A stretch of 62,750 bases of DNA, filler included. It is 3 parts of 3 records of this genome, joined end to end, with 100 filler letters (N's around TTAATTAATTAA, not from the genome) between each part and the next. Parts side by side here need not be neighbours in the genome. Positions count along the whole stretch, not along the records: positions 1 to 26,899 come from SRR22947727_249; 2 more parts are not named here. One strand, written 5' to 3'. The notes beneath the pieces were generated by a model. That model saw nothing but the letters and a program-made list of their open reading frames with translations, was not told the DNA's origin and made no database searches. The position numbers and the translations under genes are program-made. This document shows positions 3-7,742 of the stretch, piece after piece; the first letter of the stretch is position 1; each line of letters starts with the position of its first letter.

Positions 3-1730
3 GGTTATGGTGGCCTAGCATTCTTTAATGAATTTGTTGGTTGGGCTGGTAGCTCTTTTACTGAAACATTTGATGTAGCTAATCCATTTGCTGAAGGCGG
101 TATGGGCTTTACTTGTGCAGAGCTTTTAGCTGCTGGACAAAACCCTCTGGGCACATGTGATGCGCTTTTATTAGATGATGGATCTTTTACACAGTACATG
201 GCTACTGTTGAAGCTATTGCACCAAATACATTTAAAAGAACTCTTCCTATGCAATTAGGTGGATTAATTCAGGATAATCCTGTAATTCAAGAAAGTGTTG
301 CTATTTACGGTAACCTTTTTTATGACATTTCAGATGATACTAAATTAACCATTGGTTACAGAGCTAATGATGATAAGTACGATGACTATTCTATCAATGC
401 TCTAGGAGATGGTACTAACCCTGATTATGTATACAGTCCTGTTTACGATCTATACACATTTGCTGGAACAGTTGAAGCGTCAGATACTGCCTTTAGAACA
501 AAAGGTTCTGATACAGCAGAAACATTTAAGCTTGCTATTCAGCACAATTTAAATGATGACATGATGGTATATGCCTCAATGTCTACAGGTAATAAGCCTG
601 GTGGCTCAACCCCAGATCAGTATGGTAATCCATCAGTATTTGCTCCAGAAACCGTTGATTCATTTGAATTTGGTCTTAGATCAATCTTAATGGATGGCAG
701 ATTGCTAATGAACTTAACTGCTTTTTCAATGGAATTCCAAGATGCTCATACATCACAGGTCGTAGGCTCAGCTGCTATAACAAACAGTTTAGACTACACT
801 CATAATGGATTAGAAGGTCAAATGAAGTTTTTTGTAACAGAGGCAACTTCTATTGATTTTAACTTCCTAGCTCTTGATTCAACAATTGATGATGGAGAAG
901 AGCTATTTAACCCATTAAACCCAAATGGAGCATCTGAAATTCTTGATATATACAATCTTACTGATGAAGACGATGTTGCAAGAATGGCTTTAGCTCTTGA
1001 TGCGCTTGTTGCTGACGGCAGTATTTCTTCCCAATCCTTACAATTACCTAATCCAATTGCTGGAGGAGGCGGTGGTTTAACTTGTGCGCAATTAGCAGCC
1101 CTTGGCTCTGCTGCAGGTGTACCTGGTGTAACCGCTGCAACACTTGGATGTGATGCACTTATTGGAGGCACAGGAGCGTCATATCTAGGTTTATTGACAT
1201 CAAATCCTGATGCAGGTGATTTATTGCCATTCTTAATGTTTGCGTTAACAGATACTGGAATTATTGCTAACTATCAAGGTAGAAACCTATCTGCAGGAAG
1301 ATGGGTTGCTGATAGTGATGCGTTTGCTGGACTTCCATTACCATGGTTAGCAGCTGATTATTTAGTACCTTTAGGAGGAACAAGAACTCCTTTTACTTCA
1401 GAGCTTGATTACAACATTGCTGTAAATCATTCAATGGCTGTTATGTCAGGTATGTTAGACCTTAAGTTAACTTACTCTCATAAAGGAGATAGTAATGGTG
1501 ACTTGTTTGATTCCCCATTAACCTATACTCCAGATCAAGACTATCTTGATTTATATGGAAACTGGACTCCAAATAATGGCGATTACTATGTAGGTTTTTA
1601 TGTTAAAAACTTAGAGGATAGTAGAAACCTCGCAGGATCTAGAACAACCTCAGAAATGGTTGGTGGACCTGCAAACCTATACTTCACTCAGCCTAGAACA
1701 GCTGGTGTGACATTTGGTTTAAATTTCTAA
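3..1730 (+). CDS. TonB-dependent outer-membrane receptor, C-terminal part (5' truncated by window edge)
   Basis: The frame is open from base 3 (GYGGLAFF...). It has beta-barrel TBDR motifs (YASMSTGNKPGG, PETVDSFEFGLRS, YVKNLED, PRTAGVTFGLNF) and a terminal Phe. Confidence 0.92.
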   Translation, partial: GYGGLAFFNEFVGWAGSSFTETFDVANPFAEGGMGFTCAELLAAGQNPLGTCDALLLDDGSFTQYMATVEAIAPNTFKRTLPMQLGGLIQDNPVIQESVAIYGNLFYDISDDTKLTIGYRANDDKYDDYSINALGDGTNPDYVYSPVYDLYTFAGTVEASDTAFRTKGSDTAETFKLAIQHNLNDDMMVYASMSTGNKPGGSTPDQYGNPSVFAPETVDSFEFGLRSILMDGRLLMNLTAFSMEFQDAHTSQVVGSAAITNSLDYTHNGLEGQMKFFVTEATSIDFNFLALDSTIDDGEELFNPLNPNGASEILDIYNLTDEDDVARMALALDALVADGSISSQSLQLPNPIAGGGGGLTCAQLAALGSAAGVPGVTAATLGCDALIGGTGASYLGLLTSNPDAGDLLPFLMFALTDTGIIANYQGRNLSAGRWVADSDAFAGLPLPWLAADYLVPLGGTRTPFTSELDYNIAVNHSMAVMSGMLDLKLTYSHKGDSNGDLFDSPLTYTPDQDYLDLYGNWTPNNGDYYVGFYVKNLEDSRNLAGSRTTSEMVGGPANLYFTQPRTAGVTFGLNF

Positions 1731-1744
1731 AATAGTATAAATTT

Positions 1745-1774
1745 AAAAAGCCCAGTTATACTGGGCTTTTTTTT
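1745..1774 (+). terminator. Rho-independent terminator after the TBDR
   Basis: AAAAAGCCCAG-TTATA-CTGGGCTTTTTTTT: a GC-rich stem plus U8 tract, 15 nt after the stop codon. Confidence 0.9.
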
Positions 1775-3339: not shown

Positions 3340-3738
3340 TCAAGCTCTCCAGCCACCCCTATCAAATATTCTTAAATAGGTGAGCTGATCATGTTCTGAG
3401 AGATTTATAACTTTACAATAATCTCCAGATTGAACGAGAACAACATCTCCAGCAGTCAAATCATAAGAGTCTTTATGCTCAACTCCATAAGATGGATCTG
3501 AGCCATGACCTTCATCAGAGTTCATATATTCTACGACCTCCATCGAGCCTCTGCCATTAGTTATTACATAAACAACATCTGAATCAATTAATTTGTGACC
3601 TTGTGTAGATTTACCTGGTTGTATAACAGTCTTACTAGCTATAACTCTTTCTAATAGATCATTAGTCCAGACCGCATAGTCTTCATTAACATTGTGTGGG
3701 GAGCCGCCAACTCTAAAATTATTATATTTTTTTGCCAT
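3340..3738 (-). CDS. Cupin-domain protein with degenerate metal ligands
   Basis: Cupin motif 1 (IQPGKSTQGH...VVYVITNGRG) and motif 2 (LTAGDVVLVQSGDYCKVIN). Confidence 0.75.
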   Translation of the reverse strand: MAKKYNNFRVGGSPHNVNEDYAVWTNDLLERVIASKTVIQPGKSTQGHKLIDSDVVYVITNGRGSMEVVEYMNSDEGHGSDPSYGVEHKDSYDLTAGDVVLVQSGDYCKVINLSEHDQLTYLRIFDRGGWRA

Positions 3739-3826
3739 AGTTTTTTGTTTTTCTATAATTATAGTTATTTAAATAAAACATGCTAGTAAATAGTGTCACG
3801 GTCTGTTGTTATTGATGGATATAAAA

Positions 3827-3832
3827 TATAAT
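3827..3832 (+). promoter_or_regulatory. Putative sigma70 -10 element for the metY leader
   Basis: Perfect TATAAT ending 6 nt before the riboswitch P1 stem; a weak -35 (TTGTTA) lies at 3806-3811. Confidence 0.55.
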
Positions 3833-3837
3833 GATAA

Positions 3838-3885
3838 CGCGCTTTTTGATATCAGCTTGCCGGCGCTAAAAAATAGGCTAAAGAG
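3838..3885 (+). ncRNA. SAM-II (SAM-II/SAM-V clan) riboswitch aptamer upstream of metY
   Basis: P1 is GCGCU 3839-43 with GGCGC 3862-66. A U-run sits in the loop. UUGCC 3857-61 can form a pseudoknot with GGCUAAAG 3876-83, with an A-rich linker between. This matches the SAM-II layout (GCGC..UUU..UUGC..GCGC..AAA..GCUAAA) and lies directly before a Met-biosynthesis gene. Confidence 0.82.
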
Positions 3886-3944
3886 AACATATAATTATCT
3901 TCTCTCAGTTGATGTTTTAATATTTAATTAATTAAGGAAACATT

Positions 3945-5237
3945 ATGAGTAAAACATACACAAACCCAGAAACCATTGGACTTCATGCAGGATGGAGGAA
4001 AGATGAAAATACTAATTCAGTAGCAGTGCCAATTCATCAAACTACCAGTTTTCAATTTGACGACACAGAACATGCAGCAAACTTATTTGCTTTATCAGAG
4101 CTTGGCAATATCTACTCTAGAATAATGAATCCAACATGTGCAGTTTTAGAAGATAGGATAGCTGCTTTAGAAGGCGGAGTAGGAGCTTTGGCAGTTGCAT
4201 CTGGTCAGGCTGCTTCAGCTTATGCAATTCAAAATATAGCAAAGAATGGTGACAATATAGTTGCTTCAGCTCATCTTTATGGAGGAACATATAATCAGTT
4301 TAAAAATGTTTTTTCTGACATGGGTATTGAGGTAAGGTTTGTTGATCCTTCAGATCCTCAAAATTTTGCTAATGCAACTGATGATAAGACTAGAGCATAC
4401 TATGGTGAGGTTTTACCTAATCCAAGTTTTAAAGTATTTCCAATATCTGAAGTAGCGGAAATAGGAAGGCCTCTTGGCATTCCTTTGATAGTTGATAATA
4501 CAGCGGCTCCAGTTATTTGTAAGCCATTCGATCATGGCGCAGCAATTTTAATTCATTCAACAACAAAATTTATTGGTGGTCATGGAACATCAATCGGTGG
4601 AATTATTGTTGATAGTGGTAATTTTGATTGGGAAGCTTTTCCAGAAAGACAGCCTGCATTGAATAATCCTGACCCATCTTATGGTGGTGCAATTTGGACA
4701 GAAGCAGTAAAGCCTTTAGGTCCAATTGCTTACATACTGAAAGCTAGAACAACTATTTTAAGAGATATGGGTGCTGCTATGAGCCCATTTAATGCTTTTA
4801 TGTTTATTCAGGGTCTTGAAACGTTAGCTCTTAGAATGAGAGAGCACTCTAGCAACGCTGAAAAAGTAGCAGAATATCTTTCAAACCATGATTCTGTTGA
4901 AAGTGTAAGTTATCCATCACACATGGAAGGTTACGCAAAAGAAAGAGCAGATAAATATCTATCGAAAGGTAATGGGGGGCTTATGGGTTTTGAAATAAAA
5001 GGCGGTATAGAGGCAGGTAAGAAATTTATCAATGCTTTAGAGATGGTCTACCATGTTGCAAACATTGGTGACTCACGAAGCTTGGCAATTCATCCTGGCA
5101 GCACAACGCATAGTCAGCTTAATGAAGAGGAATTATTAGCTGCTGGTATTACACCAGGCTATGTAAGGCTTTCTATTGGATTAGAGCATATTGATGACAT
5201 CATTGCTGACTTTGAACAAGCTTTAGCAAAGATATAG
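3945..5237 (+). CDS. metY: O-acetylhomoserine aminocarboxypropyltransferase (sulfhydrylase)
   Basis: PIHQTTSF, GNIYSRIMNPT, ASGQAA, PLP-lysine motif HSTTKFIGGHG, HVANIGD, HPGSTTHSQL. Confidence 0.95.
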   Translation: MSKTYTNPETIGLHAGWRKDENTNSVAVPIHQTTSFQFDDTEHAANLFALSELGNIYSRIMNPTCAVLEDRIAALEGGVGALAVASGQAASAYAIQNIAKNGDNIVASAHLYGGTYNQFKNVFSDMGIEVRFVDPSDPQNFANATDDKTRAYYGEVLPNPSFKVFPISEVAEIGRPLGIPLIVDNTAAPVICKPFDHGAAILIHSTTKFIGGHGTSIGGIIVDSGNFDWEAFPERQPALNNPDPSYGGAIWTEAVKPLGPIAYILKARTTILRDMGAAMSPFNAFMFIQGLETLALRMREHSSNAEKVAEYLSNHDSVESVSYPSHMEGYAKERADKYLSKGNGGLMGFEIKGGIEAGKKFINALEMVYHVANIGDSRSLAIHPGSTTHSQLNEEELLAAGITPGYVRLSIGLEHIDDIIADFEQALAKI

Positions 5238-5244
5238 AATAATT

Positions 5245-5778
5245 TTGAATCAAGAATTAGTTACTTATATAGTTCTTGGCTCAAAAACTAGGCTTAAAGA
5301 GACGAAACTGCCTGTCAAAAATAAATACGAAGAGTATCTTCGTCTTAATTTTGATTCAAAAGAAAATATAGTTAAAACTCTTGATGACTTGATTACTCTA
5401 TCTAAGGGTGAGTTGATTGTATTACTGCCGCCATCTTCTTTTCCAAATACTCAAGCCAAAGAGGCGCTTAAAAAAATAGCTTTAATAGGCTTGTCATCCT
5501 GGGGATGGTTTGAGTTTAGTTTAAAAAGAAAAAATTTTTTGCAAAATGTAAAAAAGATTAATACCTTAATAAGAAGTATTCCAGATCTAGAACAAGGAAT
5601 TTATTTTTCTAAGAGTTTATATTTTTCAGTCGGAGGAATTGGATCATTTAACACAGCGCCATTCTCTGAAATTGCAAAAAGACTATATTCAAGAATTGAT
5701 CCGCAAAAACCTCTTTCACCACTTATAATAAGAACAAAAAATCTTACACTAGATTTATACAATGCAGCCAAAAGTTAA
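5245..5778 (+). CDS. Degenerate GT2-like protein (resembles the TIGR04283 family)
   Basis: IPDLEQGIYFSKSLYFSVGG resembles the GDQGxFxxxxxFxxxGG motif; the DxD position appears replaced (LLPPSSFP). TTG start. Confidence 0.5.
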   Translation: MNQELVTYIVLGSKTRLKETKLPVKNKYEEYLRLNFDSKENIVKTLDDLITLSKGELIVLLPPSSFPNTQAKEALKKIALIGLSSWGWFEFSLKRKNFLQNVKKINTLIRSIPDLEQGIYFSKSLYFSVGGIGSFNTAPFSEIAKRLYSRIDPQKPLSPLIIRTKNLTLDLYNAAKS

Positions 5779-6340
5779 AGCAACAAATCTAAGCTATAAA
5801 ATTAATGAAAAGAAATTATTTCAAAATATTTCCTTTGAGCTTATGGCAGGAAAAGCTATTCATATACAGGGAGATAATGGTTCTGGTAAGACAACTCTTT
5901 TAAAAATTATATGCGGCTTAACAAATCAAGTTAAGGGTGAAATAGAAAAAAAACTTGATAAACAGATATGTTTTTTAGGACATAAAAACGCCTTAAAACA
6001 GTATCTTACAGTAGAGGAAAACTTATCGCTCCTTAATATAATTAATCACCCAGACCTCAAACAGCACCTTATTGAATTTGGATTAGATAAAAGTCTTGAT
6101 ATAAATCTATCAAGCCTGTCTTTTGGTCAGCAAAAGAAGATTGCTCTATTAAGAGTTTTTTTAAATGATTCAGATCTAATTCTTCTAGATGAGCCATGTG
6201 TAGGCCTAGATACTCAATCTCAAAATTACTTATGCAGATTCTTAAATGATGAGTTAGAGCATAGAAAATCAATTTTGTTTTCTTCACATATTTCCTTAGA
6301 TATCAATTCAGAAAAATTAAATTTAAGCGACCAAGTATGA
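5762..6340 (+). CDS. ccmA: Heme export ABC ATPase CcmA
   Basis: Walker A GDNGSGKTT, GHKNALK, LSFGQQKK, LLDEP; first gene of the ccm operon. Confidence 0.93.
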   Translation: MQPKVKATNLSYKINEKKLFQNISFELMAGKAIHIQGDNGSGKTTLLKIICGLTNQVKGEIEKKLDKQICFLGHKNALKQYLTVEENLSLLNIINHPDLKQHLIEFGLDKSLDINLSSLSFGQQKKIALLRVFLNDSDLILLDEPCVGLDTQSQNYLCRFLNDELEHRKSILFSSHISLDINSEKLNLSDQV

Positions 6341-6984
6341 ATATAATAAAATTTGAATTACTCAAACTTAGAAATAAATCTAGAGGATGGCTTGGACCTA
6401 TTTTGGTATTTATTTTAATAATGGTTGCTTTCCCCTTGACTGTTGAAATATCTAATAAAGATTTAGATCAGTCATTTTTTGCAGTTTTATGGATAGCGGT
6501 TCTTCTTGTAATGATGCTAGCAACTGAAGATATTTTTTTAGAAGATTTTAATGATGGTTCTTTGGAGCAGTTTGCAATTTCAGACATTAGTTTTCCATAT
6601 ATTATATCTGTGAAGATTTTTATTTATTGGCTATTAATAGGAGTGCCTATATCCATTATTGGGTCTTTGTTTTGTTTGGGTTTTACTAACTCAGGAAATC
6701 TTGCTATTAATATCTTTCCTATTTTGCTCATAACATCATATATATTTATTAATGTTTTTAGTTTTGGTAATGCCTTAAGTCTTACAAAGGGGTCTGTTCT
6801 TGGCACCCTAGTAACATTACCGTTATTACTTCCATTGCTAATTGTTTTGGGGAAAGCTGTTATTTCTATTAATCTTAATTTAAATTATTTAGGTTTTGTT
6901 GCTCTGCTTTTAGGCGTCTTATCGATTATAATATTCTTAATTCCATTAATTATTTCTTATATTATTAGAGCTCACTTAGAATAA
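6337..6984 (+). CDS. ccmB: Heme exporter membrane protein CcmB
   Basis: Polytopic membrane protein with the FLEDFNDGSLEQ motif and LPLLLP. Confidence 0.92.
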   Translation: MNIIKFELLKLRNKSRGWLGPILVFILIMVAFPLTVEISNKDLDQSFFAVLWIAVLLVMMLATEDIFLEDFNDGSLEQFAISDISFPYIISVKIFIYWLLIGVPISIIGSLFCLGFTNSGNLAINIFPILLITSYIFINVFSFGNALSLTKGSVLGTLVTLPLLLPLLIVLGKAVISINLNLNYLGFVALLLGVLSIIIFLIPLIISYIIRAHLE

Positions 6985-7010
6985 TTTTTGGTCATAGAGA
7001 ATATCTTATT

Positions 7011-7742
7011 GTGATAAAAAAATTTATACATCAATTTGCTTCGCCTAAGACCTACATGTATCAGGTAGATAGGGCTTATTCGTATATTTTCTATGTCTCA
7101 TTGGTATTGTATTTGGTTTCTATTTTTTGGGGCCTATTTGTTACTCCAGAAGACTTTGTTCAAGGTAATTCTTACAGGATTATTTATCTTCATGTACCTG
7201 CTTCTTTTATTTCTCAATCCTTGTATATTGCAATGGCGATAGCCAGCGCTATTTTTCTTATATGGAAAGTTAAACTTTCAGCATATCTAGTAAGATCCAT
7301 AGCTCCTATTGGTGCAATTACTACATTTATAGCGCTAATTTCAGGATCTATATGGGGCATACCCACATGGGGAACTTGGTGGGTTTGGGATGCAAGAATT
7401 GTGTCTACTTTGATACTATTTATTATGTATCTTGGCTTAATATCTTTGCATGATTCCTTTAGTAATCACGAAAAAGCAGATAAGTTTCTTTCAATATTAG
7501 TTCTTGTTGGCTCAGTAAATATACCAATCATTAAAATGTCTGTGGAGTGGTGGAGCACCCTTCATCAGCCTGCATCAATAACAATATCAGATAAACCTGC
7601 TATAGATTTAGTCATGTTGTATCCATTATTTGGTTCAATAGTTGGTTTTGCTGGAATAGTTGCGTGCTTAGTTATTCTTTCATCTAAATTACAGATACTG
7701 CGAAGAGAAAGAAATAAATCATGGATAAAAAACTATGTTTAA
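7011..7742 (+). CDS. ccmC: Heme exporter CcmC
   Basis: RIIYLHVP, WWD domain GSIWGIPTWGTWWVWDAR, SVEWWSTLHQ. Confidence 0.96.
   Translation: MIKKFIHQFASPKTYMYQVDRAYSYIFYVSLVLYLVSIFWGLFVTPEDFVQGNSYRIIYLHVPASFISQSLYIAMAIASAIFLIWKVKLSAYLVRSIAPIGAITTFIALISGSIWGIPTWGTWWVWDARIVSTLILFIMYLGLISLHDSFSNHEKADKFLSILVLVGSVNIPIIKMSVEWWSTLHQPASITISDKPAIDLVMLYPLFGSIVGFAGIVACLVILSSKLQILRRERNKSWIKNYV

Follow-up and report, generated by a model that had tools for sequence, protein, structure and literature searches.

The published translational examples from the riboswitch classes SAM-II and SAM-V, which respond to S-adenosylmethionine (SAM), mask the Shine-Dalgarno (SD) sequence at the 3' end of the aptamer itself (PMC6061858). 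The SAM-V element upstream of metY in 'Candidatus Pelagibacter ubique' is a translational OFF switch (PMC6061858, PMC5069961). Here we analyze a 62,750-nucleotide (nt) stretch of DNA, referred to as the window, in which a SAM-II-like pseudoknot aptamer (3838-3885, plus strand) precedes its putative target metY, the gene for O-acetylhomoserine sulfhydrylase (3945-5237, plus strand; a 430-amino-acid (aa) open reading frame (ORF) that matches TIGR01326 with 603.9 bits against a cut-off of 495.1). Its product is 100% identical to MetY of a SAR86 single-cell genome ('Gamma proteobacterium SCGC AAA168-P09', locus L001 in our survey), which identifies the host as a SAR86 gammaproteobacterium. Since the upstream neighboring gene (3340-3738) is on the opposite strand, 3739-3944 is a divergent intergenic region. 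About 60 nt separate the aptamer from the metY AUG at 3945, and about 50 nt from the SD (3934-3938); its end at 3885 is too far from the SD for direct masking, as the initial annotation of this leader had held. We put at roughly 0.5 the probability that the leader is a translational OFF switch of a different build, in which SAM would dissolve one hairpin, weaken a second helix and thereby free a strand (3904-3918) to cover the spacer and start codon of metY.

The element shares with SAM-II riboswitches of the metA/metX type (RF00521, SAM_alpha) an H-type pseudoknot with hairpin P1, a third strand ending in UUUG, an A-rich loop L3 and the loop sequence CUUGC paired with GCUAAAG, together with a candidate promoter directly upstream and a methionine/SAM gene downstream. 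It differs in its score, the match to the RF00521 model (3829-3902, full model length) falling short of the gathering score of 36 at 23.7 bits, and in what follows GCUAAAG, which is neither a P2a helix nor an SD but an inserted hairpin and then the complement of the linker, with SD and AUG 50-60 nt on. With the SAM-V element of 'Ca. Pelagibacter ubique' it has in common the gene, a marine streamlined lifestyle and a closely similar ligand-binding core; SAM-V, however, masks the SD in a 2-bp P2a at the aptamer 3' end, whereas the SD of the window is remote and its leader has no match to the SAM-V model. Terminator-type SAM-II elements (Sinorhizobium meliloti metZ, and SAR86 elements upstream of a gene for a 383-aa Cys/Met pyridoxal phosphate (PLP) enzyme) have their parts in the same order: the aptamer, a hairpin on the P2 3' strand, a complement of the P1-loop strand and an output hairpin. 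Their output is an intrinsic terminator with a U run, whereas in the window the output hairpin spans the spacer and AUG and has the linker-complement itself as its 5' arm. Translational platforms made of a sequestor and an anti-sequestor exist in other riboswitch classes, such as the thiamine pyrophosphate (TPP) riboswitch of thiM; there too the ligand frees a strand that pairs with the ribosome-binding site (RBS), and the difference is the class of aptamer. In S. meliloti metA, reported as 'translation at a distance', a SAM-II aptamer is also found far from the start codon used, but there the only SD that is needed lies within the riboswitch, with a terminator between SD and AUG (PMC9373788), while the metY leader has a normal SD beside its AUG and no predicted terminator. 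Our literature search found no description of a strand-exchange RBS platform for SAM-II. By structure and context the sensor reads as a member of SAM-II, and the platform seems to be a variant unreported for this class, with a conventional underlying mechanism.

In the alignment to RF00521, the P1 hairpin spans 3839-3866 (plus strand), with 3839-3843 paired to 3862-3866. Its loop holds L1 (UUUUUG, 3843-3848), a U-rich third strand that runs to G3848, followed by the linker (3849-3855) and the 5' strand of P2 (3856-3861). The A-rich L3 (UAAAAAAUA, 3867-3875) then leads to the 3' strand of P2 (GGCUAAAG, 3876-3883, plus strand), which would pair with 3856-3861 to form the pseudoknot and the predicted SAM pocket; the register of P2 was adopted from the description of SAM-V and SAM-II in PMC6061858. 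L1 and L3 are thus of the SAM-II kind, both the loop strand CUUGC and the 3' strand GCUAAAG of P2 are present and invariant, TTTG and GCUAAA are each unchanged in 22 leaders, and the element sits where a SAM-II aptamer is expected, in the 5' leader of a methionine/SAM gene. The exception is the 3' flank: directly after GCUAAAG at most 2 bp are possible with the linker (3853:3885 and 3852:3886, judged by eye), so that neither a P2a helix nor an SD immediately follows the P2 strand, and the complement of the linker is at 3909-3916, beyond the inserted hairpin.

The covariance-model check proposed with the initial annotation gave a divided answer. RF00521 matched below its gathering score, with an E-value of 0.0014 in a 222-nt search (3739-3960) and 0.41 in a search of the whole window, while the models for SAM-V (RF01826) and for SAM-II with long loops (RF01726) were absent from the 7 matches with E <= 10 in 3739-3960. 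At gathering level Rfam gave no match in the whole window, and a blind Rfam scan would not call the aptamer. The sub-threshold score and the whole-window E-value, along with the ordinary minimum free energy (MFE) of the whole leader (z -0.25), would fit a chance or decayed resemblance in a leader that does not sense SAM. This we find scarcely credible given the invariant core nucleotides, the covariation of P1 and P2 across 47 aptamers and the consistent placement of such elements before methionine/SAM genes.

The 47 related aptamers were aligned with a model built from SAR86 leaders, which contains P1 only and so favors P1. In this alignment each of the 5 P1 pairs shows two-sided changes, pairing holds in 96.9% of cells, and the observed covariation score was reached by none of the shuffles. 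The variable P2 pair (3861:3876) is C-G in 15 aptamers, A-U in 12, G-C in 4, U-A in 1 and unpaired in 15; three of the remaining P2 pairs never vary and are uninformative, and the fourth is C-G in 46 and unpaired in 1. Upstream of metY, a regular expression for the aptamer motif matched 22 of 80 loci, and RF00521 gave 7 matches when run on 16 loci, all below 36 bits (24.0-35.8); RF01726 scored 32.9 bits on the SAR86E metY leader L061 against a gathering score of 44. At E <= 0.05, SAM-II-like matches are found in 79 of 139 SAR86-family genomes, only 5 of which have one above the gathering score. Counting against this breadth, 2 of 14 control genomes also matched at the threshold of the genome survey, so that its weakest matches are unsafe. 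Because the family evidence outweighs an Rfam score that alone is weak, we consider it very likely that the element is a SAM-II-type sensor. Family covariation, the TIGR01326 match and the identity to SAR86 MetY together uphold the original call of a SAM-II-type aptamer before metY in a gammaproteobacterium.

That call had been framed by the statement that SAM-II is mainly alphaproteobacterial, which is outdated: in contigs representing one genome per species, the aptamer pattern matched at least 120 loci, many of them in Burkholderiales, Thiotrichaceae, Legionellales and Bradyrhizobium. A few SAM-II cases outside the alphaproteobacteria were already noted by Corbino et al. in 2005 (PMC1273637), and a gammaproteobacterial SAM-II is therefore unsurprising in itself. 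For SAR86, our literature search found no paper on SAM-II, the single co-occurrence of the two terms being incidental.

Downstream of the aptamer, the leader is arranged as a hairpin (H3), a switch strand, a variable loop and the RBS. The positions previously given for the SD, the AUG, the aptamer-like segment and the pairings of 10, 9 and 6 bp all agree with the sequence. The switch strand (3907-3918, plus strand) has two mutually exclusive partners, 3848-3857 in the P1 loop and 3937-3945 at the RBS. The first pairing, helix X, joins 3848-3857 (GAUAUCAGCU) to 3907-3916 (AGUUGAUGUU) through 10 bp, 7 of them Watson-Crick and 3 G.U. The second, helix H4, joins 3910-3918 (UGAUGUUUU) to 3937-3945 (GAAACAUUA) through 9 bp, of which 2 are G.U, within a ribosome-binding region (3934-3949, plus strand) that comprises the SD (AAGGA, 3934-3938), the AUG (3945-3947) and the 3' arm of H4. 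The 6-bp hairpin noted earlier, AGAGAA (3882-3887) with UUCUCU (3900-3905), is present, although its reach had been understated: in the MFE fold it is the inner helix of H3, a hairpin of 3877-3909 (plus strand) in which GCU..AGAGAA pairs with UUCUCU.AGU. The 5' arm of H3 overlaps the P2 3' strand, and H3 therefore competes with the pseudoknot. Beyond what had been described, the released 3' arm of H3 lengthens H4, as CUCA (3904-3907) pairs with UGAG (3946-3949) in the fold with the aptamer locked, for a total of 13 bp. The H3 3' arm was also considered as a direct anti-SD and dropped for the window, where it offers 4 bp and -2.0 kcal/mol; by eye, such a pairing looks better in loci L017, L041 and L310.

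At 37 C, duplex energies are -9.4 kcal/mol for the 10-bp X and -5.7 for H4 on the SAM-free side of the ledger, and -5.2 or -2.5 for the remnant of X and -9.0 for the extended H4 on the SAM-bound side. Against 1000 dinucleotide shuffles per duplex, the best duplex of the P1-loop strand with 3884-3950 (-10.1 kcal/mol, z -2.66) is matched by 1.5% of shuffles, and that of the platform (3884-3931) with the RBS (3932-3950; -10.8 kcal/mol, z -2.40) by 2.5%. When the loop-to-platform duplex was subjected to per-sequence shuffling in 106 aptamers, only 14% reached p <= 0.05, with 11 of 14 doing so among those of the window's type; the short loop-platform helices of other aptamer types are inseparable from chance by this method.

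Conservation follows the helices. Among 12 distinct close leaders, the linker, both arms of H3, the 11-nt switch strand and GGAAACAUU plus the AUG are invariant, while variants number 8 in L3, 10 in the H3 loop and 10 in the H4 loop, and 5 of 9 third-codon positions vary, a pattern that reads as stems under constraint and loops at liberty to vary. A further 97 loci (72 unique) came from a metagenome scan, and 73 distinct leaders were aligned with MAFFT. In this set pairing is kept in 90.3% of cells for X, where 3851:3913 is A-U in 64 leaders and U-A in 7; in 87.7% for the inner 6 pairs of H3, one of which changes on both sides; and in 85.7% for H4 with its extension, whose central pair 3914:3941 is G-C in 42, U-A in 14 and G-U in 3. 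Slid controls gave 38-62%. We regard this covariation as supportive, not strong. In the covariation check proposed for the two pairings it supplies one compensatory pair per alternative helix and, with the invariance in the close leaders, it supports the claim that 3907-3918 has two mutually exclusive partners, both of them conserved. In addition, the switch strand pairs better with the RBS of its own leader than with permuted ones (-4.28 versus -2.81 kcal/mol in 18 haplotype groups, 0 of 50,000 permutations being as low), and the P1-loop strand matched to its own platform across 13 element classes gave a permutation fraction of 0.014.

From these features we infer SAM binding, the state in which each helix would form and the OFF logic, with metY translation repressed when SAM is plentiful by a relay of alternative helices that leaves the SD without direct masking. 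In the SAM-free leader, both strands of P2 would be held by decoys, the 3' strand in H3 (3877-3909) and the P1-loop strand in X with 3907-3916; the pyrimidine-rich segment 3900-3918 would therefore be occupied, leaving the SD and AUG open. Upon SAM binding, the pseudoknot and its triplex would capture 3856-3861, 3876-3883 and L1, at the cost to H3 of its outer pairs and two inner pairs and to X of 2-4 pairs, and the freed 3904-3918 would zip onto 3937-3949 (13 bp), covering the spacer and AUG along with the end of the SD. H3 would thus be the main competitor of P2, and H4 would lengthen once H3 opens. In a folding test of this model, 3838-3883 was locked in the aptamer fold and the mean unpaired probability of 3934-3947 was compared; locking lowered it from 0.41 to 0.20. 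For the window's leader (L001), the drop in accessibility was 0.18 against a shuffle mean of 0.05, and 7% of 60 shuffles attain it.

Sister elements offer a parallel. Those upstream of the 383-aa Cys/Met PLP gene carry a clear terminator (ACCUAUCU..AGAUGGGU) with a U run behind it, and by eye their H3-like and X-like strands overlap the terminator arms by 5 nt and 2-3 nt, respectively. In these elements the H3-like and X-like helices would therefore belong to the SAM-free, read-through state. Among the matches listed (120) from the at least 120 proteobacterial SAM-II loci, similar decoy strands were counted in 15 (CUUUAGY..GYUGA) and 28 (GCRA(1-3)GCNG) loci.

On the other hand, several observations weigh against the OFF reading. 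The accessibility shift is clear only in the close relatives of the window and is about zero in two other subfamilies of metY leaders and in L016, L063, L205, L260 and L295. The MFE of the free leader, at non-pseudoknot equilibrium, contains H4, and without SAM the core of H4 has a probability of 0.74 at 37 C (X, 0.19) and of 0.96 at 20 C (X, 0.04). An open SAM-free state would then require kinetic trapping or pseudoknot stacking. The fold with X forced (-17.5 kcal/mol) is only about 1 kcal/mol worse than the MFE (-18.4). X shares just 2 nt with P2 and stands where the known P2a helix would be, displaced by the inserted hairpin, so that it may persist in the bound fold. Each helix has a single covarying pair, in a set of sequences that are related, and an earlier permutation of H4 in 9 groups was not significant (0.11). 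Finally, the module of hairpin and AGGAU-like linker-complement is retained, whatever the downstream gene, by 53 of 56 leaders with a second type of SAR86 aptamer, and it resembles a part of the sensor more than a gene-specific platform. As a result, two claims of the initial annotation are not established. One is the role of the pairing of 3848-3857 with 3907-3916 as an anti-aptamer, in view of the P2a position and the 2-nt overlap with P2; the other is the open RBS of the SAM-free leader, which agrees with the duplex energies but not with equilibrium folding. The evidence for the direction of the switch, as modeled, is mixed.

Several of these points would be explained if X were the displaced P2a helix and H3 an insert between P2 and P2a, so that both belonged to a three-way junction of the SAM-bound sensor. 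The switch strand would then stay in the bound aptamer, and metY would either not be controlled by H4 or have its RBS closed by H4 only in the absence of SAM. P2a is formed by the linker and sequence 3' of the aptamer, has 5 bp in 60% of SAM-II riboswitches and is thought by Huang and Lilley to be stable with or without ligand (PMC6061858); the RF01726 consensus has ACUG in the linker and CAGU directly after GCUAAAG, and SAR86 leaders of the RF01726 type carry CAGU only past an inserted hairpin. The retention of the module regardless of gene and the presence of H4 in the free-leader MFE also fit such a junction. We nevertheless think it unlikely. In the terminator-type sisters the X strand overlaps the 3' arm of the terminator, which excludes coexistence of X with a SAM-bound, terminated state; in the window the SAM-bound remnant of X is weak next to the extended H4; and H4, being conserved and covarying, implies a state in which the switch strand must be released. 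Activation of metY by SAM would, moreover, run contrary to the OFF logic described for SAM riboswitches of methionine genes (PMC1273637, PMC5069961). The specific form in which X arises only in the SAM-bound junction and strips the switch strand off H4, making the leader a SAM-activated ON riboswitch, would have the free leader closed, as its MFE predicts, and appears quite improbable to us.

The remaining explanations concern how the transcript is made and read. A candidate -10 box, TATAAT (3827-3832, plus strand), is the likely promoter element as read from the sequence, and orthologous leaders retain the motif AAAATATAAT at a distance of 7-10 nt ahead of P1. From this box, transcription would begin at about 3838-3840, immediately ahead of P1. 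This is consistent with SAM-II transcription starting a few nt before P1 (Corbino 2005, PMC1273637). A consensus promoter scan listed two other sites and not that at 3827-3832. Contigs from RNA libraries of three studies start at 3859 and run uninterrupted into metY, to 4106-4250, none spanning 3801-3858; their common start is a weak hint on the transcript start, and the contigs show neither transcript ends nor levels. Control might be exerted within such a transcript by Rho-dependent or weak intrinsic termination in the leader, the hairpins being secondary. Most SAM-II riboswitches are transcriptional (PMC6061858), a run of at least 5 T lies within 120 nt in 89 of 120 diverse loci among the matches listed, and the leader is U-rich after 3916. 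Since no intrinsic terminator is predicted in the region 3700-4000 and the RNA-library contigs pass through the leader unbroken (though without information on levels), we give this explanation little chance.

A further alternative has SAM acting at a distance, either by hiding an SD-like AAAGAG (3880-3885) that serves as a ribosome loading site or by altering mRNA decay. In S. meliloti metA, the SD inside the SAM-II element is required for translation from a start 74 nt downstream, and the mRNA is stabilized when SAM binds (PMC9373788); in the window, AAAGAGAA lies 60 nt before the AUG. We consider this improbable as well, since a canonical SD (AAGGA) is present 6 nt before the AUG and both the invariant spacer and the covariation of H4 would be left unexplained. 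An upstream mini-ORF (AUG UUU UAA, 3912-3920) was also considered and dropped, its AUG being missing in L012, L016, L041 and L055.

SAR86 is among the most abundant marine bacterial groups, and to our knowledge its gene regulation is almost unstudied. If the assignments above are correct, a broad SAM-II regulon of SAR86 has been overlooked by standard annotation, because nearly all copies fall just under the Rfam threshold. It would comprise metY, metK, metF, metH, other homocysteine methyltransferases, a second Cys/Met PLP enzyme and possibly outer-membrane uptake genes, with the metY copy being a small SAM-II pseudoknot that drives a remote RBS by strand exchange. The wider regulon is arguably a more useful result than the metY platform, and a lineage-specific covariance model would better annotate marine metagenomes.

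The sister elements illustrate this range. SAR86-family genomes (G001-G139; loci L201-L310) often carry 2-4 SAM-II-like aptamers each, and G001, the genome nearest to the window, carries another one in front of a gene for a homocysteine S-methyltransferase (L250). Genes found 3' of sister elements include metK, methylenetetrahydrofolate reductase, three types of homocysteine S-methyltransferase (metH among them) and the second Cys/Met PLP enzyme, as well as TonB-receptor plug proteins, OmpW, proteins of the fatty-acid desaturase/hydroxylase family, an alpha/beta hydrolase and a carbonic-anhydrase-like protein. Aptamers precede outer-membrane receptor or porin genes at L208 and L277 (TonB-receptor Plug domain), at L271 (OmpW) and at L234, L293 and L296, where the leaders are about 300 nt long; this position suggests that SAM controls the uptake of methionine or of some organosulfur compound. 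In one genus, tandem SAM-II-like aptamers about 100-110 nt apart (L235, L238, L240, L257, L262, L266 and L283) precede a gene whose product is a membrane protein from the fatty-acid desaturase family (L235 and L213 match Pfam FA_desaturase). Both a tandem of one riboswitch class and a desaturase gene under putative SAM control are unusual. In an alphaproteobacterial metagenome-assembled genome whose MetY is 70% identical to that of the window (L074), an aptamer at about 1430-1500 ends in ..CUAAAGAGGAGAGAAUGAUG, with the SD placed within the P2 3' strand and immediately ahead of the start codon, the classical direct-masking form. A second SAM-II-like aptamer of this genome lies about 200 nt further upstream (about 1241-1301) and scores 28.0 bits with the model built from SAR86 leaders and 24.0 with RF00521.

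Most of the 80 metY loci kept in our survey are from SAR86 genomes, with MetY identities of 86-100%, and the metY orthologues in SAR86 genomes are 91-100% identical. The best MetY matches outside SAR86 are from SAR116 and other alphaproteobacteria (69-82% identity), in a search biased towards close relatives. SAR86 lineages that lack the aptamer (L004, L018-L026, L028-L040, L046-L052, L062 and L065) have a different conserved region (..AATATACCAGTATATAT..AAGGGTGTTGTTA..ATTTACTATACTTA..) about 120 nt upstream of metY. A consensus RNA structure computed for 17 of these aptamer-less leaders contained 0 pairs, and the region looks like a promoter with a palindromic operator, which would put protein-based control in place of the riboswitch.

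Downstream of metY, the same strand of the window (5245-7742) encodes a 177-aa ORF without a family match, then ccmA (142.8 bits on TIGR01189) and more ORFs; the ccmC gene of 'Ca. Pelagibacter ubique' is induced by sulfur limitation (PMC5069961). Elsewhere in the window, 1655-1774 (plus strand) gave a Trp_leader-like match (30.2 bits against a gathering score of 41, E 0.04) that overlaps a match to an sRNA model. As it sits at the end of an ORF that stops at 1730, it is probably an intrinsic terminator hairpin.

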